Source: Patescibacteria group bacterium (GTDB lineage: Bacteria > Patescibacteriota > Minisyncoccia > Minisyncoccales > RBG-13-36-15). From it: DNA of 64,000 nt. Location: contig JACZRI010000003.1 in the NCBI GenBank assembly GCA_022574775.1, positions 34,308-98,307 on the forward strand, in the 5' to 3' direction. Position numbers and translations under genes: made by a program. The notes beneath the pieces are model-generated. The model was not told where the DNA came from. It saw only the letters and a list, made by a program, of their open reading frames with translations, and ran no database searches. Every line of letters begins with the position of its first letter. Position 1 is the stretch's first letter. Positions 3,744-54,453 of this stretch are shown here, one piece after another.

Positions 3744-4760
3744 GTGTTTAAGGATAAGGTATACAATAAGAAGATGAAAAAGACGAGTTTGCAAAAGTTA
3801 CTACCAGGTTTAAAGAGAAATGTTTTACTAAAAAACTATACTACTTTTAAAATTGGGGGTGCCGCCCAATTTTTTTTTGTTGCGAAAAATAAAAAAGATG
3901 TAATGAAAGCAGTCCAAACGTCCAAAAAATTAAAGCTTCCATTTTTTATTCTAGGAGAGGGAAGTAATTTGTTGATATCTGATAGGGGATTTAAAGGGTT
4001 AGTTGTCAAAATACGAAATACGAAATACGAGATACCCCGCACCAGAACAAGTTCGGTGCGGGGCAGGCAAAACATTCTGGTTTATGCAGAAGCTGGGGTT
4101 TCTTTCCCTGTTTTGGTTAAGGCAACGACTGAATTGGGATTGTCTGGATTAGAGTGGGCAGGTGGATTGCCAGGTACTCTAGGTGGAGCAATAAGGGGTA
4201 ATGCAGGAGCATTTAGAGGAGAAATAAAAGATGTTATTTTGGAAGTTGAAGCTTTGGATGAAAAAGGTAATTTAAAAACATTATCTCGAAAGCAATGTAA
4301 TTTTTCTTATCGATCCTCTATTTTTAAAAAAAATAACTGGATTGTTTTATCAACTGCGCTAAAACTGGGAAAAGGAAATAAAAAATTGATTCAGTCGATT
4401 GCAAAAAGTCATATAAGATATCGAGAAGAAAAACATCCACTTGAATATCCTAATGCCGGCAGTATTTTTAAAAACTGTGACCTCAAAAAAATTCCAAAAA
4501 GACTAAGAGCCAGTTTTAATAAAGTTGTAAAGACAGATCCATTTCCATTAATACCTTCGGCCCACCTTATTTCAGAAGCTGGATTGAAAGGATTAAGAGT
4601 TGGCCAGGCAGAAGTTTCAACCAAGCACCCAAATTATATTGTTAATCTGGGTAATACTACAGCAAAAGATGTAATAAAATTAATAAATTTAGTAAAGAAA
4701 GAAGTAAAAGATAAATTTGGAATAGTATTAGAAGAGGAAATAAAACTTGTAGGGTTTTAA
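3744..4760 (+). CDS. murB: UDP-N-acetylenolpyruvoylglucosamine reductase MurB (alternative start at 3774); carries a 36 nt in-frame palindromic insertion at 4036-4071
   Basis: NYTTFKIGG and GEGSNLLISD FAD-binding motifs plus a MurB C-terminal domain. The PRTRTSSVRGRQ segment has no counterpart in reference MurB alignments. Confidence 0.8.
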   Translation: MFKDKVYNKKMKKTSLQKLLPGLKRNVLLKNYTTFKIGGAAQFFFVAKNKKDVMKAVQTSKKLKLPFFILGEGSNLLISDRGFKGLVVKIRNTKYEIPRTRTSSVRGRQNILVYAEAGVSFPVLVKATTELGLSGLEWAGGLPGTLGGAIRGNAGAFRGEIKDVILEVEALDEKGNLKTLSRKQCNFSYRSSIFKKNNWIVLSTALKLGKGNKKLIQSIAKSHIRYREEKHPLEYPNAGSIFKNCDLKKIPKRLRASFNKVVKTDPFPLIPSAHLISEAGLKGLRVGQAEVSTKHPNYIVNLGNTTAKDVIKLINLVKKEVKDKFGIVLEEEIKLVGF

Positions 4761-5081: not shown

Positions 5082-5114
5082 CCCCGTACCAGTTGGCGCG
5101 GGGTTTTTTTATTT
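5082..5114 (+). terminator. Rho-independent terminator
   Basis: CCCCGtaccagttggcgCGGGG hairpin followed by T9. Confidence 0.55.
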
Positions 5115-5148: not shown

Positions 5149-5171
5149 AAATAACTATTCGAAAAATTTTT

Positions 5172-5606
5172 ATGAAAATTATTATTAAAACGAAAAATAT
5201 CAAATTAACAAAAAATTCACAAAAATATATTAATGACAAAATAAATTCTTTGGAAAAGTTTTCCAGAATTTTCCAACAAAACCAAAAATATTTTTTCAAA
5301 AAAACAGGAATAGTAATCCGGATAGAGATTGGAAAAGAAACCCTGCATCATAAAAAAGGAAATATTTTTTTCGTAAAATGCCAAATGAAACTTCTTGATA
5401 AAATCTTGCGAGCAGAAGTTGTTTCAAAAAATTTGCGGGAGGCAGTAAATGAAGTCAAAAATATTTTACAAAAAGAATTAAAGCAGTCTAAAGAAAAATT
5501 AACTTCCAAAAATTTAAGAAAAGCAAGAATTTTAAAAAAATCTTTCCACCTTTCTTCTCAAGCTCGCTTTTGGAGAAAAGGTAGAATAAGAGAAGAAGGA
5601 ATATGA
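5172..5606 (+). CDS. hpf: Ribosome hibernation promoting factor / RaiA family protein
   Basis: The size, beta-alpha-beta-beta-beta-alpha pattern, and the (I/V)xIxxG...TLH motif are typical of HPF/YfiA. Confidence 0.55.
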   Translation: MKIIIKTKNIKLTKNSQKYINDKINSLEKFSRIFQQNQKYFFKKTGIVIRIEIGKETLHHKKGNIFFVKCQMKLLDKILRAEVVSKNLREAVNEVKNILQKELKQSKEKLTSKNLRKARILKKSFHLSSQARFWRKGRIREEGI

Positions 5607-6145
5607 TTCCATCAAAATTTTTCTTTACCAAAGGAGTTGGGATAGCGAAAGAAAAACTGAGTTCTTTTGAGTTAGCTTTAAGAGACGCTGATATTGAGCA
5701 GTATAATTTAGTTTCTGTTTCCAGCATTTTACCACCCGGCTGTAAAAAAATTTCAAGAGACAAGGGAATATCTATGTTAAAACCAGGCGAGATTGTGTTT
5801 TGTATTATGGCTAGAAATGAAACGAATGAACCCAATAGATTGTTAGGAGCTGCAGTTGGTTTTGCGCTACCTACTGGAGATAAAAATTATGGTTATCTTT
5901 CTGAACATCATTCTTTTGGCGAGACAGAGGGGAAAGCAGGAGATTATGCCGAAGACTTAGCAGCTTCTATGTTAGCTTCTACTCTTGGAATTAAATTTAA
6001 TCCTGATGATGCCTGGGATACTAGAAAGCAAGCCTTTCGGTTAGGCGGAAAGATAGTCTATACTTCTAATGTTACCCAAACTGCCAAAGCTAACAAAAAT
6101 GGCCTGTGGACTTCAGTCTTAGCGGCAGTCATTTTTATTCCCTAA
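5603..6145 (+). CDS. pdaD: Pyruvoyl-dependent arginine decarboxylase
   Basis: MIPSKFFFTKGVG..FELALRDA..SVSSILPPGC closely matches the PdaD N-terminus, including the serinolysis site. Confidence 0.8.
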   Translation: MIPSKFFFTKGVGIAKEKLSSFELALRDADIEQYNLVSVSSILPPGCKKISRDKGISMLKPGEIVFCIMARNETNEPNRLLGAAVGFALPTGDKNYGYLSEHHSFGETEGKAGDYAEDLAASMLASTLGIKFNPDDAWDTRKQAFRLGGKIVYTSNVTQTAKANKNGLWTSVLAAVIFIP

Positions 6146-6168: not shown

Positions 6169-7317
6169 ATGAACAATAAACTTTCAAAAAAAGAAAAACA
6201 TCTTGCCAAACTTGTTTCTGAATACGCAAAACTGAACCTAAAAGAGTATAAAAAAGTAAGGAATATTACTCAAAAATACAAGACAAAAAAAGTTGAGACC
6301 ATTGATGTTAATTCCAAAAGTGTTTCTGAACTTTTATCTGCGATGGCAAAAACAGGTTTTCAGGGCAGGAAGCTTGGTGAAGTAGTTGATGTTTGGGAAG
6401 AGATGATTAAGGACAAGAATATAACTATCATAATGGGGTATACGGGTTCTTTAAGCACAACAGGTCAGTGGAAGATAATAAATTGGCTGATAGAAAATAG
6501 ATATATAGATGTTTTGGTTTCGACAGGAGCCAACATCTCTGAAGAGATTGTAGAGGGTATGGGGTATCATTACTGGCAAGGAAGCCAGAATGCTGATGAT
6601 GCTAAGTTATTAGATAGCGATATTAACAGGTATTATGATATTTTTGGGGACGATGTAGAGTATCTGGACATGATAAACTTGATAGCTAAATTTATCATGA
6701 CCTGTAAAGAAGGCTATAATTATTCTACAATGGAATTCCTGCGCGACTTTGGCCTGTGGTTGAATAAGAGAAAAGTAGACAGTATTGTAGGGGTTGCTGC
6801 CAAAGCCAAAGTTCCTGTTTTCAGTCCTGCTTTGGTAGATTCAGCGTATGGAGATGCTGTATTGATAGCAAAGAGTAAGAACTTCGATTTAATACTTGAT
6901 CAGGCAAAAGATTATGTAGAATTCATGGGTCTGGCAAGAAAGGTAAAGGATATCGGAGTAATTTACATAGGCGGTGGCGTACCAAAAGACTTCATTCAAC
7001 TTTTAGCGGTATCTGCGCCTCTTGAATATTATGATAAAAAAATACCTGACAGATCTGGAGGCGTTTTTCGTCCTGCAACCAACGAATGGTTTTATCCTCA
7101 CAAGTATGCTATACAAATAACTACTGACAGTCCGCAATGGGGAGGCCTTTCGGGATGCACTTTCGAAGAAGCGAGCAGCTGGGGCAAAGAAGAACCAGGT
7201 GGCAAGAATGTAACGTGCTACTGCGATGCCACCATAGCCTTGCCGATTGTCACACATGCTTTGGCAGAAAGAATCAAAACAAAAAGAAAAGGTACTGATT
7301 TTTCCGACCTTTTTTAA
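6169..7317 (+). CDS. Deoxyhypusine synthase-like protein (DHS family)
   Basis: The GSLSTTG...LVSTGANISEE Rossmann-like DHS signature is present, and the gene sits between pdaD and speB. Confidence 0.65.
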   Translation: MNNKLSKKEKHLAKLVSEYAKLNLKEYKKVRNITQKYKTKKVETIDVNSKSVSELLSAMAKTGFQGRKLGEVVDVWEEMIKDKNITIIMGYTGSLSTTGQWKIINWLIENRYIDVLVSTGANISEEIVEGMGYHYWQGSQNADDAKLLDSDINRYYDIFGDDVEYLDMINLIAKFIMTCKEGYNYSTMEFLRDFGLWLNKRKVDSIVGVAAKAKVPVFSPALVDSAYGDAVLIAKSKNFDLILDQAKDYVEFMGLARKVKDIGVIYIGGGVPKDFIQLLAVSAPLEYYDKKIPDRSGGVFRPATNEWFYPHKYAIQITTDSPQWGGLSGCTFEEASSWGKEEPGGKNVTCYCDATIALPIVTHALAERIKTKRKGTDFSDLF

Positions 7318-12556: not shown

Positions 12557-13966
12557 ATGTCAAAGAAAAACCTCTATTTTAGTCTTGCCTCTGTTCTTAT
12601 TTTGTTTTTCTTGGCTGCGAATTTAAGTTATCCAAAATATTTTAATCAAGGGGTAGATTTCATTAATTCTAAATTCCAGATTCAGGATTCAAAACTCAGA
12701 ATCCCGCATTTTCCAGAGATTCCATTCAAGTTAGGACTGGACTTGCAGGGAGGAAGCCATCTTTTATATGAGGCTGACTTGTCACAAATAGATCCCAAAG
12801 AGCAAGATTCTGCGATGGATGGTTTGAGGGATGTGATTGAAAGACGGGTCAACCTTTTTGGGGTTGCTGAACCGGTTGTTCAGATTCAGGAAGTGGGGGG
12901 GAGACTTGGGCTAATTGTAGAATTGGCAGGGATAAAAAATGTCGGAGAAGCCATTGAGATGATCGGAGAGACCCCCTATCTTGAATTTAAGGAACAGAGG
13001 TCAGAGGGTGAGACACAAAAAATCCTTGATAAACAAAAAGAAGTTGAGGGCAAGACTTCCGAAGAATTTCAACAAATTTCTGATTGGCAGTTGGCCTTTG
13101 AAGATCCTTATTTTAAAGCCACCTCTTTAACCGGGAAATACCTAGAAAAAGCAGAACTTAATTTTGACCCGACTACAAATGAACCATTAGTGTCGCTTTC
13201 CTTTGACGATGAAGGTTCAAAAATTTTTGAAGAACTGACCTCAAGAAATATCGGAAAACCTCTTCCAGTTTATGTTGATCAATTCCTAATTTCTGCCCCG
13301 GTTGTACAGGGAACTATTTCAGGCGGAAGGGCCCAAATTACAGGTAACTTTACTATTAATACGGCAAAAGAGTTAGCTAGGAATCTTAATGCGGGAGCTC
13401 TTCCGGTTCCAATTAATTTAATCTCTCAACAGACAGTAGGGCCAATTCTTGGCAAGATATCTCTGGAAAGGAGTTTGCGGGCAGGAATTTTCGGATTTTC
13501 AGCTGTTATTCTCTTTATGATTCTTTTTTATCGGTTGCCCGGAGTTTTAGCCTCTATATCCCTGCTTATTTATCTGACTTTTATTTTAGCCATTTTTAAG
13601 TTAATTCCCGTAACTTTAACTTTAGCAGGCATCGCGGGCTTAATTTTGTCAATTGGAATGGCAGTTGACGCGAATATTTTAATTTTTTCCAGAATGCGGG
13701 AAGAATTAAAAGAAGGCAAAGGTTTTTTAATCAGCGTAGAGGAAGGATTTCGAAGGGCTTGGTCTTCCATAAGAGACGGAAATTTTACCACATTAATTGT
13801 GGCTTTAATTTTATTTGGTTTTGGTACGAGTTTCGTTAAAGGATTCGCTTTAGTTTTAAGCTTGGGAGTCATTGTAAGCATGCTTTCTGCAATTTTCATT
13901 ACAAAAAATCTTCTCAAACTGTTTGTCAATACAAGGTTTGAAAAAATAAGTTGGCTGTGGAAATAA
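12557..13966 (+). CDS. secD: Protein translocase subunit SecD
   Basis: Periplasmic domain followed by a 6-TM SecD/SecF region (LDLQGGSHLLYE, GIAG..LSIGMAVDANI). Confidence 0.85.
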   Translation: MSKKNLYFSLASVLILFFLAANLSYPKYFNQGVDFINSKFQIQDSKLRIPHFPEIPFKLGLDLQGGSHLLYEADLSQIDPKEQDSAMDGLRDVIERRVNLFGVAEPVVQIQEVGGRLGLIVELAGIKNVGEAIEMIGETPYLEFKEQRSEGETQKILDKQKEVEGKTSEEFQQISDWQLAFEDPYFKATSLTGKYLEKAELNFDPTTNEPLVSLSFDDEGSKIFEELTSRNIGKPLPVYVDQFLISAPVVQGTISGGRAQITGNFTINTAKELARNLNAGALPVPINLISQQTVGPILGKISLERSLRAGIFGFSAVILFMILFYRLPGVLASISLLIYLTFILAIFKLIPVTLTLAGIAGLILSIGMAVDANILIFSRMREELKEGKGFLISVEEGFRRAWSSIRDGNFTTLIVALILFGFGTSFVKGFALVLSLGVIVSMLSAIFITKNLLKLFVNTRFEKISWLWK

Positions 13967-13976
13967 TGAACTAATT

Positions 13977-14014
13977 TTATCCTTCGATAAACTCAGGACA
14001 CTTCGACTTGCTTG
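13977..14014. repeat. GC-rich palindromic repeat, family B (core ATCCTTCGAnAAnCTCAGGACACTTCGACTT), truncated copy between secD and secF
   Basis: 37 of 40 nt identical to 25962-26001. Related copies lie at 53343 and 63676. Confidence 0.6.
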
Positions 14015-21598: not shown

Positions 21599-21742
21599 TA
21601 TTAGCCCCAGAACCAATCCTCACTTCGTTCGAATGGTACGGGGCAAGCATTAATTATGGTTTAACTTGTTTGGAGTTTCCTATGCCCGCCCCGTATTTCC
21701 CGACTTGTCGGGATAGTACCGGGGTATATTAGTGTCGCGTTT

Positions 21743-25853: not shown

Positions 25854-25961
25854 AATTATATTGTATCGATTTAGACAAAATTTGTCAAGCTTAAGAATTC
25901 TCATTTGAAAAAGATGTCAAAAAAGATTAAAATAAGTTATTCGTGTTGATACTAGATTAAA

Positions 25962-26046
25962 GTTATCCTTCGACAAGCTCAGGACACTTCGACTTACTTG
26001 CACTGAGCGAGGCCTGAGCAGAGCGAAGGACGAGTCGAAGTGTGAC
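25962..26046. repeat. Family B palindromic repeat, full composite copy immediately upstream of and overlapping the murJ start
   Basis: CCTTCGacaaGCTCAGG...CCTGAGCagagCGAAGG and ACACTTCGACT...AGTCGAAGTGT form interleaved inverted pairs. Confidence 0.6.
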
Positions 26047-27768: not shown

Positions 27769-29607
27769 ATGGAAGAACGAAAGAACATAATAAATTTCTG
27801 TATTATTAGCCATATAGATCATGGAAAGTCAACTTTATCTGATCGTTTCTTGGAGCTTACAGGCACTGTTTCAAAAAAGAAAATGCGGCCCCAGTATTTG
27901 GATTTAATGGATCTGGAAAGAGAGAAAGGGATTACCATCAAAATGCAGCCAGTAAGGATGTCCTATACCTTAAACGCCAAACCCTATATTCTAAACCTTA
28001 TTGACACGCCGGGTCATGTTGATTTCTCGTATGAAGTTTCAAGATCCTTGGCTGCAGTTGAGGGCGCAATATTATTGGTTGATGCGACAAAGGGAATTCA
28101 GGCGCAGACTATACACAATTTAGAATTGGCGAAAAAACCCCGATACTATTCATCTTCTGCGGAGTTACGGGGCAGGCAAAATTTCGTAATCATTCCAGTT
28201 GTTAATAAGATTGATTCGTTGTATGCGCGAGTTGAAGAAGTAAAGGCGGAAATTTCCCAGGTTTTAAATGTTGAGGAACGGGAAATTTTATCTATTTCAG
28301 CGAAAAACGGCACCAATGTAGAAGAACTTCTCAAAGTTGTGATAGAAAAAATTCCAAAGCATACTGGCAGCGAGGATGCTCCTTTCAAAGCGCTCATTTT
28401 CGACTCTAAATATGATTCCTTCAAAGGAATAATCGCCTACATAAGAATTTTTGAAGGGAAGATTAAAACAGGAGAGCAGATTTATTTAATAGGAGGGAAG
28501 TCAAAGTCTATTGTGAAAGAGGTAGGGTATTTTAAGCCGGGTTTAACCCCGGCTTTAGAGCTTAAAGCCGGGGAGATCGGGTATTTGGCTACTGGCATTA
28601 AGGAGCCTGGAAGGGTAAGAGTGGGAGACACCATTACGAAATTAAATACTGCTGAAATTAAACCATTGCCGGGCTATAAGGAGCCGAAGCCTGTGGTTTT
28701 TGCCAGTTTATATCCTGAAAGCCCAGAGGATTTTGACCTTCTCAAAGAAAGTTTAAACAAATTAGAACTGTCCGACCCTTCTTTTACGTTTGAGCAAGAA
28801 GCAAAAGAGATGCTGGGAAGAGGGTATCTCTGTGGATTTTTAGGTTCGTTGCATGCTGAAATTGTGATTGAGAGGCTTCAAAGAGAATTTGGACTGCATT
28901 TGATAATTTCTCATCCTTCGGTGGTATATAAAATTATTGATAAAAAAGGAAAGGAAGTTTTAGTTTTTTCTCCTATTGATTGGCCCGATGTATCTTCAAT
29001 CCAAAATACTGAGGAACTCTGGGTGAAGTTAGAAATTATTGTTCCCAAAAAATATTTCGGCAAAATCTTCAAGGTTTTAGAAACAACTAAAGGAAAGCAT
29101 ATTGAGAACAAGTTTTTTGGGAAGGAGCAAGTCTTGTTGATTTATGAGGTTCCTTTGCGAGAAATAATAAAAGACTTTTACGACAAACTAAAAGGAGCTA
29201 CAGAGGGCTTTGCCTCAATGAATTATGAAATTTTAGGTTTTCGAAAGGCAGATTTGGTGAAGTTGGATATTTTGATTGCCGGCAAGAAGGAGAAGGCATT
29301 TTCTAAAATTATCCCCAAAGAAAATACTTTTTTGGAAGGCAGAAAGATTGTAAGCAAATTAAAAGAAGTCTTGCCTCCTCAACAATTTGCTTTACCATTG
29401 CAGGCTGTTATCTCCGGGAAAATTATTGCAAGAGAAACACTTTCTGCGAGAAGAAAGGATGTTCTGGCATCTATCTACGGCGGAGATTATACGCGAAAAA
29501 AGAAACTGTTGCAAAGACAAAAAAAAGGCAAGAAGAAACTAAAAGGGAGATCCTTGCCAATTAAGATCCCCCCCAAAGTGTTCTTAGAAATTTTCAAAAG
29601 CTCTTAG
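27769..29607 (+). CDS. lepA: Elongation factor 4 (LepA); carries a 42 nt in-frame palindromic insertion at 28139-28180
   Basis: G-domain motifs HIDHGKST, DTPGH and NKID plus the LepA C-terminal domain. The PRYYSSSAELRGRQ segment is absent from reference LepA between QT..N and NKID. Confidence 0.9.
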   Translation: MEERKNIINFCIISHIDHGKSTLSDRFLELTGTVSKKKMRPQYLDLMDLEREKGITIKMQPVRMSYTLNAKPYILNLIDTPGHVDFSYEVSRSLAAVEGAILLVDATKGIQAQTIHNLELAKKPRYYSSSAELRGRQNFVIIPVVNKIDSLYARVEEVKAEISQVLNVEEREILSISAKNGTNVEELLKVVIEKIPKHTGSEDAPFKALIFDSKYDSFKGIIAYIRIFEGKIKTGEQIYLIGGKSKSIVKEVGYFKPGLTPALELKAGEIGYLATGIKEPGRVRVGDTITKLNTAEIKPLPGYKEPKPVVFASLYPESPEDFDLLKESLNKLELSDPSFTFEQEAKEMLGRGYLCGFLGSLHAEIVIERLQREFGLHLIISHPSVVYKIIDKKGKEVLVFSPIDWPDVSSIQNTEELWVKLEIIVPKKYFGKIFKVLETTKGKHIENKFFGKEQVLLIYEVPLREIIKDFYDKLKGATEGFASMNYEILGFRKADLVKLDILIAGKKEKAFSKIIPKENTFLEGRKIVSKLKEVLPPQQFALPLQAVISGKIIARETLSARRKDVLASIYGGDYTRKKKLLQRQKKGKKKLKGRSLPIKIPPKVFLEIFKSS

Positions 29608-34173: not shown

Positions 34174-34259
34174 TATCCACCTCTTCGGCGGATGCACCGA
34201 TGAGGTGCATTGCGAGGTCGTCTAATGGCCCCGTGTACTATAAAAATTATATTTAGAGC

Positions 34260-34330
34260 TGGGAGGTCATCTAATGGTAGGATGCAGGCCTCTGGAGCCT
34301 GGCATGATGGTTCGAGTCCATCCCTCCCAG
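34260..34330 (+). tRNA. tRNA-Gln (anticodon CTG); CCA not encoded
   Basis: Acceptor TGGGAGG/CCTCCCA, anticodon stem CAGGC/GCCTG with loop CTCTGGA, T-arm GATGG-TTCGAGT-CCATC. Confidence 0.75.
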
Positions 34331-34446
34331 CTGTGGATATAATTTTAGTACGGGGTAAATAGGACTTGGTTCGCCTGCCCCGCTGTGCCTCCCCAGTAAC
34401 CTTGAGCATAGTTCGAGAGACCGAGAGGTGTTATTTACGAATTCTA

Positions 34447-34470
34447 AAATCGCCAAGAAGGCGGTTTTTT
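34447..34470 (+). terminator. Rho-independent terminator (member of a repeated terminator module)
   Basis: CGCCaagaaGGCG hairpin followed by T6. The same roughly 50 nt module recurs at 40872-40922, and its core at 46483-46508 and 44072-44128. Confidence 0.6.
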
Positions 34471-34547
34471 ATATTAAGATAGAATAATTAGAATCTCTGT
34501 GGAAAAATACACTTGACGCCAATTTCATATGAAATATAATTCATACT

Positions 34548-37019: not shown

Positions 37020-37571
37020 AAAATATCAGCATTTACTAGATAGAAAATTATTAAAAAGGGTAAGAGATAAAGAAGAATTATCATTACGATCTGTTCTAGA
37101 AGGTGTAGAGACAGAGAAGAAAGAAAAATTAGATTCAAAAAATATACCATTTTGAGATACTTTTGAATTCAAATTTTCAAGCCTAAACTCTAAATCGTCC
37201 AGCTAAAAGAGTTTGAGCCGGTGTTTTAACCCCAAACCCCTCTATAAACCAAGTTCTAATACTGTACCATCCCCGCAGTCATTTAGGGCACCTGACCGAA
37301 ACCAGTCTCAAGCCACAAGAAAACCGCCTTGTCCAGGCGGCTTTCTTTTTACTTCTCAACACGCTTGTCTTATATTCTTCAACGAGATTCAACTGGTATC
37401 ATTCATTTCAGATCATGTGAATCTGAAAATACTACAGAGATTTCGGTATCCAGAAAGTCTTTAATCTATATAATATAGTTTCCGAATGCTACTCCCACGT
37501 TTCCCGTAGAGATAGTATTATTCGCTTTATTCTTATCGGTGCTATAATTAATAAGATAACAATTTATTGCT

Positions 37572-39502: not shown

Positions 39503-39618
39503 TAAATATTCGATAAAATAAAGATATTTTGAGAGTAGATATATAACCAAAAAATCGCAAAAACGGCGGTTTTTCTTGATTGTTTTGTCAAATCAAAAAA
39601 TTGAACTTTCAACATCTT

Positions 39619-40895: not shown

Positions 40896-40930
40896 TTCTA
40901 AAATCACCAAGAAGGCGGTTTTCTTTTATT
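40896..40930 (+). terminator. Rho-independent terminator (repeat of the 34416-34468 module)
   Basis: CACCaagaaGGCGG hairpin followed by TTTTCTTTT. The upstream 30 nt are also shared with the 34416 copy. Confidence 0.55.
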
Positions 40931-40934
40931 AAAG

Positions 40935-41340
40935 AAAAGAGGGGAGCACGCCTGACTGACGCAACTCCCCTTGTTCGTTCGAAGACTCTGAGCACCTATT
41001 AAGAGAGGGCTATTTCACTGGCGACTTCACGGAAGCTGGCGCCCCCGCTTCATAGTCTCGCCCCTATTCTACACATTCTAAGAGGTGTTCCCTCCAACGG
41101 TATACTCCGCGAGTCAGAACCACTGGGAGGTTGAACCCAGCTCTCCCATCCATGTGGAGATTATCCCAACCAACGACTAGTCCTTTTTCCGAACGAACAT
41201 AGTTTTTTTATAACAATCCAAATAACGTGTCAATAGGGCAACAGAAAATCGTCAACCTGTCCGCCTGTGGAAGAAAAGCATGCCTCACACCGTCGAGTCA
41301 AACTCGACTGGTGCGGGGGTCCACGGCTACCAGTCGCTTA
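40935..41340. ncRNA. Candidate structured ncRNA in a GC-rich (about 50%) non-coding segment; identity unresolved
   Basis: 400 nt with no credible ORF, marked GC enrichment as seen for rnpB, and multiple GC hairpins (GGGGAGC...GCTCTCC, CTGGG-aggttgaa-CCCAG, GGTGCGGGGGTCCACGG). Confidence 0.3.
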
Positions 41341-41373
41341 GAAATTATGCTAAACTAAGTTTAGTGAAAAAAT

Positions 41374-44071: not shown

Positions 44072-44128
44072 AAATCGCCAAGCCCTAAACCAGAACAAGT
44101 ACGGTTCAGGGTAAAAAGGCGGTTTTTT
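44072..44128 (+). terminator. Rho-independent terminator whose loop carries a nested 33 nt palindromic insertion (44083-44115)
   Basis: AAAATCGCCAAG[CCCTAAACC-AGAACAAGTAC-GGTTCAGGG-TAAA]AAGGCGGTTTTTTT. The flanks equal the intact terminator module found at 34447 and 46483. Confidence 0.55.
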
Positions 44129-45160: not shown

Positions 45161-45411
45161 ATCTAAAATATATTTTAATCCATCTTTATTTTACCAGAAT
45201 GATAAAATAATATAAGATTGCCAATCAGGCGGTTTTGCGTTTAAAAATCTATGCCTTAAATCCAGCGTGGTTCAAACGATTGACAAGATATTGTCTATAT
45301 GCTAATCTTACTAACGAGATAGTTGCCTAATAAAAATTTAGTCGAGTTTATTTGGGAAGCTAAACTTTAGGGTAAAACCTTAAAATACTAATAAGAATAA
45401 TTCATATAACT

Positions 45412-45856: not shown

Positions 45857-46219
45857 TTAATCTCGAGTATGCCAGTGAGCCCACGCAATAAACAGGGGCT
45901 GAAACGGCAACCTAACCAACAACGCCCACAGGGGTGTGCCCAAACCAGCGCCAGCAGAAGTTAAATGATAAATGTTGGCGGGAAATATTGCTATGAGTAA
46001 AAATATGATTCCCCAAGATGCCGGTTTTCGTAATTTTTTTGCCAAAAGAAGTATTCCAAGGAATATTTCTATGACCCCAGAAAGATATACTAACTCTAAA
46101 TGAAAAGGAATATAAGGTGGCATGATGACTAAATAAAATTCCGTTGATAGGAAATGATTCACACCATTAAAAATATAAAAGACCGACATTACATAAAGAC
46201 TGGCTTTTTTAAATTTCAT
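45857..46219 (-). CDS. Small integral membrane protein (DoxX-like)
   Basis: 4 predicted TM helices; family assignment is weak. Confidence 0.35.
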   Translation of the reverse strand: MKFKKASLYVMSVFYIFNGVNHFLSTEFYLVIMPPYIPFHLELVYLSGVIEIFLGILLLAKKLRKPASWGIIFLLIAIFPANIYHLTSAGAGLGTPLWALLVRLPFQPLFIAWAHWHTRD

Positions 46220-46482
46220 ACAAACTCGTTTTTAACTTATAAATATTAGATTAATCATATCACGGTTTGGATTTTTACTTGAACCATATGTCATTTCACG
46301 GCAGAACCATAATGAGATATTAAGCTAGGAGTTTCGGATCAATTAATTTCTCCTTTGCATCAGCTTCGTTAAACACGATCGTTTCTCATATCATCCTAAA
46401 AACAATCCGAGAGTTGCTTGCTCTGAATTTATTGAAGGGTTGTCTCGGGCCCGACTTTTTTTATAGCTTTTAACGAGATTTA

Positions 46483-46508
46483 AAAATCGCCAAGAAGGCG
46501 GTTTTTTG
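46483..46508 (+). terminator. Rho-independent terminator (same module as 34447)
   Basis: AAAATCGCCAAGAAGGCGGTTTTTTG. Confidence 0.6.
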
Positions 46509-46904
46509 TTTGGCAAAAAAGCAATTTTGTAATAGTGTTAATTTAATCGCACATCATAAATAGAAAGGAGGCATCTTATGGTTACTCTGGGAAAAATACA
46601 GATTCCAGAAACATTAAGGGAAGGAAATCAGTGTCCGGCATTGGACGGCGGAACGCTTGGTCTATTCCGGAGCTGAGGGGTGAAGTTGGGATGCAGTGTG
46701 CATCCTGAAATACACAGACGCCGACCGAGGCAACGGATAAGGAGAAAAAGCAGTTCCAAGAGCGACTAGAACAGTCCACAAGACCCTGCGTGTAGGGGTC
46801 AAACCCCGCCCGATTCAATACTTTGCAGTATGTCTGAAAAGAGCGGGTTATTTATTTACAAATTTTTTAGTATAATGATTAAAGGAGAGTGTATTTAATA
46901 AATA

Positions 46905-52274: not shown

Positions 52275-52877
52275 ATGAAAATGAGAACAAAACACAGAAT
52301 CTTTATTGCTATTAATTTCCTTCCAGAAATAAAAAAGGAGTTCCTTTTTTATCAGAAGAAATGGGAAGATTTACCGGTTCGATGGACGAAAAAAGATAAT
52401 TTACACTTAACTTTGGTTTTTATCGGCTCTGTGGAGGATGAAGGTTTACTAAAAATCCTTGAAACTGCAAGGGAAGTAGCGAAAAATTCCCAACCTTTTT
52501 CAATACATTTTCAAAGAATTCTTCTTGGTCCGCCTGACAGAACTCCTCGAATGTTTTGGGTAGAAGGGGAAAAGAATCAAGATTTGAGTGTCTTAAAAAA
52601 TAATTTAGAAAAAGAATTGTCAGAGTTAAAATTAAGACGAGAGCTTCGAGAATTCAAAGTCCATATTACCATAGGAAGAATTAAAATATTAGAATGGCGC
52701 CAGCTTCAAAAGAAACCAAGAATTGAAGAAAAAATCTCCTTAACGGTATCGGTAAATTCTATTGAAGTTATGGAGAGTAAATTAAAACCAACTGGGCCGG
52801 ACTATTTTGTTTTAGAGTCAATCAAGCTTGGACCCCTTTCTTTTTCAAAAAAGAAAGGTGATCCCCCGGTACTATAA
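52275..52877 (+). CDS. thpR: RNA 2',3'-cyclic phosphodiesterase (ThpR/LigT, 2H family)
   Basis: Two H-x-T/S-x motifs (HLTLVF and HITIGR). Confidence 0.65.
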   Translation: MKMRTKHRIFIAINFLPEIKKEFLFYQKKWEDLPVRWTKKDNLHLTLVFIGSVEDEGLLKILETAREVAKNSQPFSIHFQRILLGPPDRTPRMFWVEGEKNQDLSVLKNNLEKELSELKLRRELREFKVHITIGRIKILEWRQLQKKPRIEEKISLTVSVNSIEVMESKLKPTGPDYFVLESIKLGPLSFSKKKGDPPVL

Positions 52878-53091
52878 ATCCTTTCGGATTTGAGTACGGG
52901 GCTAGAATACGAAATACATACGTTATTTTACAAGATGCTCGCCCCGTACCATGCGAACGCAGTGAGAATTGGTACTGGGGCAACCTCCAAAGAAAAAATA
53001 TAATGTTATCGCTCGCTCGGCGCCGGTAAGCCGTAGCTCGCGATATTTGTTCGAGACCTTTTTAAAAAAAGGTTCTCGAGCTCTCAAAATT

Positions 53092-54453
53092 ATGAAAAAG
53101 GTTCATTTCATTGGCATTGGAGGAATTGGGGTTTCTGCATTGGCCAGATTTTATTTGAAAAATGGGTGGGAAGTTTCAGGTTCTGATTTGGAAAGTTCAG
53201 AAACCATAACGGCGCTGGAAAAATTAGGAGTTAAAATTTTTGTCGGCAAACATAAAGTTAAAAACTTGAATCCTCAAGCTGATTTGGTTATTTACAGCCC
53301 AGCCATTAAATCGGACAATCCAGAGTTGCTGAAAGCTAAAAGCTATCCTTCGGCAAGCTCAGGATCCCGAGCAGCGTCGAGGGGTAAGTTGGAAGCTATC
53401 TCTTATCCTCAAGCTTTAGGCCAATTAACAAAGAAATATTTTACCATTGCTGTCTCTGGGACGCACGGAAAAAGCACAACCGTAGCCATGATTAGCCTGA
53501 TTTTAATAAAAGCAGGACTTGACCCAACTGTAATTTTAGGAACAAAACTTAAGGAATTCGGCAACAGCAATTTTCGAATGGGCAGCAAACTGCCAACTAC
53601 TAAATATAAACTGCCTTTTCTGGTGATTGAGGCTGATGAATGGGGAGCATCTTTTTTGTATTTTTGGCCAAAGATTATTGTTTTGACCAACATTGAGAAA
53701 GAACACCTCGATTATTATAAAAACTTAAACCATATTTTGAAAACTTATAAAAAATATATTTCCCATTTGCCAAAAACCGGCGTTTTGATAGCAAATAGAG
53801 ATGACCAAAATATAAAAAAAATTATAAGAAAAGAAAAAACGTCATTTTATTCTCTAAGCGATACGGAAGCAAAGAAATTAAAAAATATTTTGGAAGTTCC
53901 GGGAGTTCACAATATTTCTAATGCTCAAAGCGCCTTGACAACTGCCAGAGTTCTAAAAATCCCAGATAGGATCTCTTTTAAAGCTCTTTCAGAATATAAA
54001 GGAGCCTGGCGACGGTTTGAGATTTTTACTAAATATCTAGCAGCTCGGCCCTATACCTTAATTTCAGATTATGCTCATCATCCAACAGAGATAAAAGCTA
54101 CCCTTCAAGCCGCCAGAGAAAAATTTAAGGGAAGAAAAATATGGGCTGTTTTCCAGCCCCATCAATATCAAAGAACATATTATTTTTTTAAAGATTTCGT
54201 TAGAGCTTTTGATTTGGCAGACGAAATTATCTTAACTGAAATTTATCAGGTTACAGGAAGAGAGGAAAGAAAAATTTTAAGAAAAGTCAGCGCTAGAAAA
54301 TTAGCAGTAGATATTAGAAAAAGAAGGAAAAAAGTCCACTTTGTTAAAGATTTTGAGAAAATCCCAAAATTTATTAAAACAAGAGTCAAAGGAAAAGATG
54401 TTGTTTTAGTAATGGGAGCAGGAGACATTTATAAGATAATCGACTTTTTATAA
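53092..54453 (+). CDS. murC: UDP-N-acetylmuramate--L-alanine ligase MurC; carries an in-frame GC palindromic insertion at about 53343-53384 (SASSGSRAASRGK)
   Basis: IHFIGIGGIGVSALA, GTHGKSTT, and the Mur ligase middle and C-terminal domains. The track ORF extends upstream to 52969, but the likely start is MKKVHFIG. Confidence 0.8.
   Translation: MKKVHFIGIGGIGVSALARFYLKNGWEVSGSDLESSETITALEKLGVKIFVGKHKVKNLNPQADLVIYSPAIKSDNPELLKAKSYPSASSGSRAASRGKLEAISYPQALGQLTKKYFTIAVSGTHGKSTTVAMISLILIKAGLDPTVILGTKLKEFGNSNFRMGSKLPTTKYKLPFLVIEADEWGASFLYFWPKIIVLTNIEKEHLDYYKNLNHILKTYKKYISHLPKTGVLIANRDDQNIKKIIRKEKTSFYSLSDTEAKKLKNILEVPGVHNISNAQSALTTARVLKIPDRISFKALSEYKGAWRRFEIFTKYLAARPYTLISDYAHHPTEIKATLQAAREKFKGRKIWAVFQPHQYQRTYYFFKDFVRAFDLADEIILTEIYQVTGREERKILRKVSARKLAVDIRKRRKKVHFVKDFEKIPKFIKTRVKGKDVVLVMGAGDIYKIIDFL

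Follow-up and report, generated by a model that had tools for sequence, protein, structure and literature searches.

A miniature REP-like hairpin in frame in murB of a Patescibacteria group bacterium, a probable selfish element with relatives in several phyla

The gene for UDP-N-acetylenolpyruvoylglucosamine reductase, murB, lies on the forward strand (3774-4760) of a 64,000-nucleotide stretch of a Patescibacteria group bacterium (contig JACZRI010000003.1, positions 34,308 to 98,307), here called the window. Its product carries the Pfam domains FAD_binding_4 and MurB_C and matches MurB proteins of the PDB with E-values of 1e-50. Within the gene, a GC-rich hairpin element of 33 nucleotides (CCCCGCACCAGAACAAGTTCGGTGCGGGGCAGG, 4035-4067, forward strand) reads in frame as PRTRTSSVRGR and is missing from an 87%-identical orthologue. 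We consider it very probable that this insert is a mobile insertion, akin to REP (repetitive extragenic palindromic) sequences, which stays in the coding frame. The overall picture of a tiny, non-autonomous, REP-like selfish hairpin that entered murB cleanly, at the DNA level and in frame, is probable as a whole. The 328-residue MurB of the window is recorded identically from NCBI, ENA and Logan assemblies, and because these three sources are independent, an assembly artefact is rejected as the origin of the insert.

The element comprises a 29-nucleotide hairpin and a 4-nucleotide unpaired tag, with the layout CCCCGCACC-A-GAAC-AA-GTTC-GGTGCGGGG-CAGG. The 5′ arm of the outer stem (CCCCGCACC, 4035-4043) pairs over 9 bp with the 3′ arm (GGTGCGGGG, 4055-4063), as a preliminary description of this region had proposed. 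Enclosed by the arms (4044-4054) are a bulged A at 4044, an inner stem of 3-4 bp formed by GAAC (4045-4048) and GTTC (4051-4054), and an AA loop at 4049-4050. The 3′ tag CAGG (4064-4067; family consensus CARG, mostly followed by C) precedes a CAA codon (4068-4070), all on the forward strand; this glutamine codon stands in place of a host codon which is CGA (arginine) in the empty orthologue and encodes Q, R or K in others. Together, insert and host codon read CCC CGC ACC AGA ACA AGT TCG GTG CGG GGC AGG CAA, that is PRTRTSSVRGRQ. The segment had been reported to start at 4036; the sequence is present as given, but its true start is 4035. Its GC content (24/36, 67%) exceeds the 32-35% of the surrounding 2-kb windows, in agreement with the contrast first noted, and the range over the entire window is 32-41% in 2-kb windows. 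The hairpin has a minimum free energy of -20.8 kcal/mol (z = -5.1), and none of 200 dinucleotide shuffles is as stable.

Comparison with 26 close MurB homologues reveals the empty site. In the nearest one (P0002, locus L040; 87% identity), gene order is kept and the DNA reads GAGATA-CGA-AACAC where the window has GAGATA, the 33 nucleotides, CAA and AACAT. The filled gene is exactly 33 nucleotides longer and no flank is duplicated. At the protein level, YEI-R-NTYLY in P0002 faces YEI-PRTRTSSVRGRQ-NILVY in the window. An indel of 12 residues had been postulated; the indel itself is real, but the inserted DNA accounts for 11 residues, the last Q being a host codon. The element thus entered murB at the DNA level, in a clean insertion which left no target-site duplication and kept the frame. 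The inserted residues are not ancestral in close orthologues, and the hairpin recurs widely at the DNA level. A scan of metagenomes for close murB relatives returned mostly sequences of at most 63% identity and few informative sites.

In the protein, 9-10 residues at the insertion point are missing from solved MurB structures. An AlphaFold2 model with a mean predicted local distance difference test score (pLDDT) of 85 shows residues 88-99 as a loop between two β-strands, with pLDDT of ~54 for residues 91-100 and below 50 for residues 92-96. The loop position which the preliminary description had suggested checking is therefore what the model returns, albeit with low local confidence, and the insert is predicted to sit between two strands of the FAD-binding domain. 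Presumably it is transcribed and translated as 11 extra hydrophilic residues that are tolerated rather than useful.

The junction in murB is used repeatedly. In a neighbour-joining tree computed with the insert columns taken out, four of the six members of the window's clade carry an insert, the carrier P0008 is nested among five empty orthologues, the carrier P0014 also stands among empty ones, and one clade has a short decayed insert, PLDSARGKQ. Such scattered occupation requires at least four independent gains or many perfectly precise losses, and its patchiness in distant orthologues marks the site as a hot spot. The inserts of the window and of P0008 (L041) are 91% identical (30/33), compared with 68% for the rest of murB and 71.5% for 200 flanking nucleotides, which suggests that the element is not evolving along with its host gene. 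In L043, the murB insert has the same termini as that of the window and a different interior. A second gene of the window, lepA, bears an in-frame member of 39 nucleotides whose inner stem is decayed (PRYYSSSAELRGR, 28138-28176, forward strand, followed by CAA up to 28179); its termini (CCCCG...CGGGGCAGGCAA) and reading phase are identical to those of the murB insert, as was claimed from the outset. One lepA orthologue (L166, 66% identity) has a different, composite insert at the exact AAAAAA^CA junction, a 76%-identical orthologue is empty there, and the empty site in L167 (AAAAAA^CAGAAC) shows no target duplication. More than one lineage has an occupied junction in murB, and the same is true of lepA.

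These data bear on the view that the insert is an ancient, vertically inherited MurB loop, in which the hairpin arose by chance or has a gene-specific role (mRNA stability, pausing) and absences reflect loss. In several orthologues of 60-78% identity, an insert with the ending RG(K/R)Q does occupy this position, and the occupation of most of the window's clade fits as well. However, the empty sites would need repeated perfectly precise deletions, the inserts are more alike than the genes around them, the second carrier is nested among empty orthologues, and the hairpin is also found in unrelated genes in three phases, and between genes, in many phyla. We regard an ancient loop as very improbable.

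The window itself contains further relatives. The pattern CCCCG-N15-30-CGGGG has 5 matches where 0.08 are expected, and none of 100 shuffles reaches 5. The family is characterized by a CCCCG/CGGGG clamp, usually CCCCGYAC(C)/(G)GTRCGGGG, and by the unpaired 3′ tag CARG, while the interior ranges from a 4-nucleotide loop to nested hairpins and the element length from 27 to 51 nucleotides. Common termini and the excess of clamp matches support the repeat family that had been assumed to unite murB, lepA and intergenic sites. Two tail-to-tail doublets are present. The first joins an intergenic member at 21605-21647 (forward strand, CCCCAGAACC...GGTACGGGG-CAAG) to another at 21685-21724 on the minus strand (CCCCGGTACTAT...ATACGGGG-CGGG). 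The second consists of a forward-strand member lying over the stop codon of a ligT-like gene (52864-52905, CCCCGGTACTAT...GTACGGGG-CTAG, then AGAATACGAAATAC) and an intergenic minus-strand member (52938-52980) which is 89% identical to the copy at 21605-21647. Spacers in both doublets (21.6 and 52.9 kb) measure ~32-37 nucleotides and are not conserved in sequence. Lastly, a family-type outer stem (CCCCGTGTACTATAAAAATTATAT ... ATATAATTTTAGTACGGGG, 34229-34355, forward strand) surrounds tRNA-Gln (34260-34331), after a tRNA 5′ fragment (GAGGTCGTCTAATGG).

Two forward-strand members are related to transcription terminators. At 5082-5103, a tagless, terminator-like hairpin with the family stem (CCCCGTACC-AGTT-GGCGCGGGG) is followed by a T run. 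At 44083-44111, a diverged copy (CCCTAAACC-AGAACAAGTAC-GGTTCAGGG) is nested in the loop of an intrinsic-terminator hairpin, AAAATCGCCAAG^AAGGCGGTTTT, of which uninterrupted versions exist at 34446, 40900 and 46483. The loop of this copy is AGAACAAGTAC and its stem differs by two double, compensatory changes and one mismatch, in keeping with the loop-identical copy announced for this position. The terminator module AAAATCGCCAAGAAGGCGGTTTT itself recurs at 34446-34474, 39550-39574, 40900-40928, 45214-45242 and 46483-46511, with a further conserved 5′ extension of 25 nucleotides at 34419 and 40873. It is the copy at 44073-44127 that the hairpin element has split. In the window, Rfam offers no family match for the hairpin at gathering threshold or at E-values up to 1, and a known RNA family was discarded; its matches are RNase P, three tRNAs and, below threshold, a weak and unrelated one at 37206-37273 (RF02596, E 0.43).

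Could the hairpin be a functional host signal, namely an intrinsic terminator module (including antisense termination within genes), a DNA-uptake sequence or the binding site of a conserved protein? The two terminator-related copies point in this direction. In A-rich coding DNA, the antisense strand moreover presents a hairpin with a U-rich tract, where G·U pairs are tolerated, and conservation across phyla could reflect a conserved binding partner. On the other side, intergenic copies show no orientation preference relative to neighbouring genes and their 3′ ends, terminators need neither a fixed stem sequence nor a CARG tag, and close relatives differ in having the element in an essential gene, which speaks against a required signal. 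Uptake sequences arise through point mutations and are not known to come from a clean insertion of 33 nucleotides. A host signal is extremely improbable in our judgement.

The family extends far beyond the window. One genome per GTDB species was scanned with the pattern CCCCGYACC-N4-30-GGTRCGGGGMRRGCA, which gave at least 119 loci. As most of the stem and the bases following the tag were prescribed by this pattern, copy numbers and taxonomic range are lower bounds, and target preference is partly imposed. About 23 of the loci lie in genomes above 60% GC, mostly of actinomycetes, and are probably due to chance. Among the matches listed, the remaining 96 copies belong to many classes of the Candidate Phyla Radiation (CPR), the group that includes the bacterium of the window, to Omnitrophota, to Planctomycetota and to a few other metagenome-assembled genomes. 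The CPR groups in this set are Saccharibacteria, Uhr-, Kerfeld-, Doudna-, Sung-, Giovannoni- and Falkowbacteria, Microgenomates and Parcubacteria. An identical 35-mer is shared by Saccharibacteria, Uhr-, Sung-, Doudna- and Parcubacteria, while Omnitrophota and Planctomycetota have lineage-specific variants, the planctomycetal copies with their own flank GAATGA|CCCCG. Binning errors may misplace some matches, as identical flanks occur under different taxon names in L079 and L100. A phage-borne element was dismissed, the hairpin having no exact match in IMG/VR viral contigs. That the family spans several phyla, that the murB site is a recurrent hot spot and that the insert abuts a heptamer array had been overlooked in the preliminary description.

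Comparison of these copies defines the structural constraints. The murB loop AGAACAAGTTC occurs in at least 12 of the copies listed, and the loop variants AGAGCAAGCTC, AAAGCAAGCTT and ACAATAAATTG are altered on both sides of the inner stem. Over 16 distinct copies, double changes affect 6 of 13 pairs; the observed covariation is reached in none of 500 shuffles and collapses when the partners are slid. All four inner-stem pairs covary across copies from other genomes, and the innermost covarying pair leaves a loop of 2 nucleotides. The 96 copies listed have the tags CAGG (56), CAAG (31), CGGG (5), CGAG (3) and AAAG (1). A strict CA target preference after the element was abandoned: the scan pattern had imposed it, and unascertained copies support only the following C (10/11). 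Stem pair 6 is C·A in 46 copies, C-G in 27, T-A in 22 and T·G in one, so that the commonest state is a C·A mismatch on the strand with the tag at its 3′ end (the mRNA-sense strand) and a G·T wobble on the complementary, tag-5′ strand. Maintenance of the stem by compensatory changes could be taken in favour of the ancient MurB loop considered above, but the C·A mismatch on the mRNA-sense strand argues against selection for mRNA folding. L055 (reverse complement 4130-4330) has a direct tandem of four family hairpins, in which each tag touches the next CCCCG; a direct repeat of ~40 nucleotides of host sequence brackets the cluster.

Inside genes, the copies obey clear rules. Roughly 40 of the 96 copies listed fall within long open reading frames (ORFs), from which genic status was crudely called, and all three phases are used; the encoded peptides are PRTRTSSVRGRQ, (S/T)PHQNKFGAGQA and PAPEQVRYGAGK. 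At least 20 housekeeping hosts were assigned by reading the translations, among them RecG, PurL, ProRS, IleRS, TrpRS, CysRS, MurC, MurF and PBP2, as well as GatA, MiaB, the CCA-adding enzyme, HypF, Rpe and EtfB. The length is a multiple of three in 27 of 28 ORF-spanned copies (27, 33, 36, 39 or 51 nucleotides), compared with 36 of 68 elsewhere. Furthermore, 23 copies in ORFs are in sense and 4 in antisense orientation. The three sense peptides have grand average of hydropathy (GRAVY) values of -1.7, -0.5 and -1.5, the antisense ones of -0.65, +0.5 and +0.5; of the three antisense frames, two are hydrophobic, with many Cys and Trp residues. Genic copies thus appear to survive selection only if they are a multiple of three long and, mostly, in the orientation giving a hydrophilic peptide. 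This pattern fits insertion at the DNA level in either orientation followed by selection on the translated product, and it argues against removal from the mRNA.

Such removal is the essence of a further alternative, in which the element is an intervening sequence excised after transcription, as a mini-intron or by RNase III-type excision and religation, and MurB lacks the extra residues. The stem does bring both junctions together. Stems of the family type enclose a tRNA at 34229-34355, and extended stems flanking tRNAs in related genomes recall processing stems; CPR rRNAs are known to carry excised insertions. If excised, however, the element would be free in length and phase, yet the ORF-spanned copies are, with one exception, multiples of three and stop-free, against 53% of multiples elsewhere, and the orientation filter agrees with peptide hydrophilicity. 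Apparent frame-breaking copies were rejected as signs of RNA-level removal: L101, L104, L140 and L145 are gene junctions (hypD/hypE, ABC ATPase/permease), and L138 has an assembly gap. No bacterial mRNA splicing system is known to act on such hairpins, and we hold excision to be highly improbable. Taken together, the ancient MurB loop, the intron-like sequence and the host signal are largely excluded by the data.

A few genic loci deserve separate mention. In L138 (LigA, reverse complement 4190-4350), ~36 nucleotides of downstream coding sequence appear duplicated before the element (QKLRGKTFVLTGV); with a run of N in between, the arrangement is uncertain. The alignment of LepA orthologues of this clade contains at least eight distinct small inserts rich in R, G, S, A and P, at varied sites and in patchy distribution, from which such decoration appears to be common in these genomes. 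A second LepA insertion site is common to P0122 and P0186 (SLNERRASRGG and SSNERMVRGGG), and one LepA insert resembles a translated heptamer array (NSKSQIPNSKSQNSLEIRNSDLEI). A split metK in L043 (13100-13170), considered as an effect of the element, is a frameshift in an A11 run and unrelated to the hairpin family.

Directly 5′ of the murB insert lies a tandem array of heptamers, AAATACG three times plus AGATAC, which encodes KIRNTKYEI (4009-4035, forward strand; Tandem Repeats Finder: period 7, 3.9 copies). The unit differs by lineage: AAATACG in the window, (AAATTCG)x4 in L004, (AAACTAC)x4 in L005 and AGAATAC/AAAATAC in L043. At the array loci (L004:2906-3000, L005:10193-10290, L040:10235-10303, L043:3631-3741), the encoded strand follows KI(R/Q)N(T/S)K(Y/F)(E/K)I. 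Protein length stays constant despite the change of unit, and orthologues have arrays whether or not they bear the hairpin. The pattern suggests a non-triplet microsatellite that evolves in concert within an essential gene. As the origin of the murB array, a ladder of 7-bp excision footprints is not supported, since the array adds no protein length.

Beyond murB, copies are ~17-fold enriched beside 7-nucleotide arrays (6 of the 96 listed against 7 of 1920 random positions), for period 7 alone, and in L062, L067 and L153 the phase of the array runs on across the element. In at least 8 loci, the element is inserted in the D-loop of a 5′ tRNA fragment located upstream of an intact copy of the same tRNA. 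Loci with such fragments are found in the window (34207-34233 and 34356-34385) and in L051, L054, L060, L076, L092, L109, L129 and L065. The fragment comprises the acceptor strand and the D-arm, 20-100 nucleotides upstream of an intact tRNA (Asp, Asn, Thr, Val or Gln), and the acceptor stems of the intact tRNAs continue on both sides into long complementary extensions. The fragments may be pseudo-tRNA leaders, duplication by-products of insertion or processing signals.

How does a 33-nucleotide hairpin move? For the mobile REP-like element, the model we favour would involve a single-stranded hairpin intermediate handled by a structure-specific enzyme of the HUH/Y1 type, as in the 'peel and paste' of RAYT (REP-associated tyrosine transposase) or IS200-IS605. 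The lack of target duplication, the asymmetry of pair 6, the 2-nucleotide loop, a strand skew, the unpaired tag and the inverted doublets all favour such a model. No filled/empty comparison, in murB or lepA, shows a duplicated target, and the phase of heptamer arrays passes unbroken through copies placed in them; single-strand HUH transposition is not known to leave target duplications. From the asymmetry of pair 6, one particular single strand is apparently under structural constraint. Loops of 2 nucleotides are tolerated by DNA mini-hairpins and, in general, not by RNA hairpins. In 30 intergenic copies against 14, the tag-3′ strand coincides with the G-rich one (p = 0.02). RAYT-like genes are, moreover, present in CPR loci. 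Movement by a RAYT-like single-strand DNA mechanism is nonetheless, to us, possible rather than probable.

Several points weigh against this interpretation. The strand clues conflict: tolerance of the wobble favours folding of the tag-5′ strand, whereas by the skew it is the tag-3′ strand that lies on the lagging-strand template, the location of the active strand in elements of the IS608 type. No transposase is encoded in the window or its flanks. A phmmer search with E. coli RayT against all ORFs of ~1.4 Mb of DNA returned one RAYT-like gene in L094 (E 1e-6) and another in L162 (with an NHIHVL motif); both are flanked by other hairpins, and no RAYT bracketed by the family was seen in this DNA. 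REP families are normally specific to a species or genus; near-identity across phyla fits poorly with a private transposase that co-evolves with its repeat, and may indicate a different mechanism or a conserved factor of the host. Some copies are flanked by host direct repeats of 30-40 nucleotides (tRNA 5′ fragments, LigA, L055), which peel-and-paste would not predict. The copy number of about nine clamp-type members refers to the 64 kb of the window and not to the whole genome, and translation of the murB insert is inferred rather than observed. Finally, the known REP tags are two, GTAG and CGTC (PMC3733652), and CARG, which reads CYTG on the opposite strand, matches neither. What is well supported is a miniature, non-autonomous, REP-like selfish hairpin whose insertion at the DNA level is clean, which keeps to the coding frame of murB and which lasts in genes only if it is in frame and encodes a hydrophilic peptide.

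The HUH genes of the RAYT/IS200 type are located at 5150-5990 of the reverse complement of L162 (minus strand) and at L094:5487-6175. They are bracketed by hairpin repeats of their own (GCGGCGGAGTC...GACTCCGCCGC in L162), a REPtron-like arrangement with a different repeat family. An all-versus-all BLAST of 1214 ORFs from element loci, run for a recurrent neighbour gene, returned housekeeping clusters only. An Avd-like cluster is limited to two loci (L150, L095), a third member in L055 being an artefact of translated hairpins. Both loci (L150:4340-4870; L095, reverse complement 6290-6750) have small genes between inverted heptamer arrays (AAAATCC ... GGATTTT; AATTAAA ... TTTAATT), and in L150 a family hairpin lies ~150 nucleotides upstream. 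We take the products, from their translations, to be four-helix bundles similar to the 23S rRNA intervening-sequence protein and Avd.

The associations with arrays and tRNA fragments feed the chief alternative, an ultra-small mobile element of the cyanobacterial small-dispersed-repeat type. It would be copied into structured or repetitive targets by template switching, an RNA-mediated route or another unconventional process, with no private HUH transposase, and the same process would also produce or homogenise the heptamer arrays and the host duplications of 30-40 nucleotides. The enrichment beside 7-nucleotide arrays, the unbroken array phase across the element, the perfect arrays of different heptamers at the insertion spot of murB orthologues with or without a hairpin, and the insertions in a terminator loop and in tRNA-fragment D-loops all agree with it. 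The long direct repeats around some copies, the near-identity of the hairpin over phyla and the lack of a cognate RAYT in ~1.4 Mb can be added. Mobile repeats of 21-27 nucleotides in Nostoc punctiforme, SDR4-6, reportedly treated by Elhai and colleagues in 2008, are said to be linked with heptameric repeats and hairpins, and an unconventional copying mechanism has reportedly been proposed for them. However, 90 of the 96 copies listed are outside arrays at a strict threshold, and the murB array adds no length relative to other MurBs, which leaves no simple footprint ladder. Moreover, the data give no sign of an RNA intermediate or of a reverse transcriptase; the sole Pfam match of the window related to reverse transcriptase is RVT_3 beside RNase_H, in a 146-residue product read as RNase H. 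We judge this alternative unlikely.

A bolder synthesis would make the hairpin family (CCCCG clamp and CARG tag, 27-50 nucleotides) an ultra-small mobile element common to CPR, Omnitrophota and Planctomycetota. Its spread would not depend on a private RAYT. Single strands with structure or repeats (heptamer arrays, hairpin loops, tRNA D-loops) would be its targets, and it would reshape essential proteins in frame, give rise to pseudo-tRNA leaders and perhaps have a causal part in the birth or homogenisation of coding heptamer arrays like that of murB. In this full form, the proposal seems rather unlikely to us.

The murB-type family resembles several known systems without coinciding with any. 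REP superfamilies are defined by a GTAG or CGTC tag and intragenic REPs are occasionally known (PMC3733652); the REPIN/RAYT mechanism and its single-strand DNA intermediates are covered in PMC3116915 and PMC6006769. Like REPs and REPINs (PMC3733652, PMC3116915), the family consists of short (20-40 nucleotides in REPs), GC-rich, imperfect hairpins with an unpaired end tag, in dispersed copies, inverted doublets and some terminator-like positions. The absence of target duplication in murB and lepA is a further likeness. In contrast to REPs and REPINs, its tag is CARG/CYTG, ~40% of the sampled copies are in genes and not mainly extragenic, the sequence spans several phyla instead of one species or genus, it is associated with heptamer arrays and tRNA 5′ fragments, and the two RAYT-like genes in CPR loci are flanked by hairpins of another type.

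Similarity to the Rickettsia palindromic elements (RPEs) had been proposed initially. It holds for behaviour, as the palindromic repeats of both are tolerated in frame within numerous unrelated genes, often essential ones, of a small and AT-rich genome; size and anatomy (27-51 nucleotides, single hairpin, unpaired tag) are closer to REPs. RPEs are in-frame palindromic repeats in many unrelated genes, apparently tolerated via surface regions, and are about 100-150 bp long (~150 bp as first described) and confined to Rickettsia (PMC10969869); RPE-4 and RPE-6 have been equated with CGTC-type REPs (PMC3733652). The murB-type family has a single hairpin of 27-51 nucleotides in CPR, Omnitrophota and Planctomycetota. 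The Nostoc SDR4-6 are reportedly mobile repeats far below 100 nucleotides that have no known transposase and occur in structured or repeated contexts, tandem heptamers among them, and the murB-type family may be comparable in these respects; phylum and sequence differ, and in-frame occupation of housekeeping genes is salient in the murB-type family. Mobile GC clusters of yeast mitochondria are short GC-rich palindromes in a very AT-rich genome which can sit in frame in var1; being organellar and of other sequence, they are an analogy only.

[quoted passage not shown] The murB-type element is likewise non-autonomous, with inverted termini and a variable interior, and in-frame MITE fusions are known (PMC10969869). 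However, MITEs measure 70-300 bp with terminal repeats of 15-30 bp (PMC3733652), whereas the murB element has 9-bp arms, 33 nucleotides and no duplication. The kind of element is thus already known, from intragenic REPs (PMC3733652) and in-frame RPEs (PMC10969869). Full-text literature searches yielded no account of the murB-type family or its tag, of a spread over CPR, Omnitrophota and Planctomycetota or of the repeated use of the murB and lepA junctions, and with no matching Rfam family, nothing contradicts the early statement that it is undescribed for this lineage.

Selfish hairpins inside genes have been viewed as oddities of a few genomes, such as intragenic REPs and RPEs. Here, a single hairpin of ~33 nucleotides occupies loops of MurB, LepA, aminoacyl-tRNA synthetases, Mur ligases, RecG and PurL in several uncultivated phyla with tiny genomes. 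Protein indels in CPR proteomes and alignments, and spurious 'low-complexity' peptides with them, have in this family a recurrent source that can be dated. The family can also be used to mark insertion hot spots and horizontal exchange among CPR, Omnitrophota and Planctomycetota. For annotation, it is a warning that GC-rich islands in AT-rich CPR genes may be insertions and not conserved motifs. The mechanistic question it raises is what moves a 33-nucleotide hairpin cleanly, with no duplication, across phyla. A new mobilising mechanism or a causal link with coding heptamer arrays would, if true, carry greater weight.

Other GC-rich parts of the window are of minor interest. The stretches 40925-41350 and 45905-46817 contain no long ORFs and have no Rfam matches. 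A structured RNA at 40925-41350 was discounted, its fold z-score being only -1.8, marginally better than shuffles; this stretch has CGCCCCCGC ... GGTGCGGGGG at a distance of ~270 nucleotides, possibly as a family-type clamp that surrounds a larger cargo. Another family of GC-rich repeats, with the core TTATCCTTCGRCAAGCTCAGGA and peptides of the type SFDKLR, is present at 53325-53396, 13943-14014 and 25929-26040. The copy at 53325-53396 is in frame in a MurC-like ligase gene (53092-54453; YPSASSGSRAASRGK); the direct repeat on its two sides, AAGCTATC, may be a target duplication of 7-8 bp. The other copies of this second family are found where secD meets secF and in the interval from RNase P RNA to murJ.

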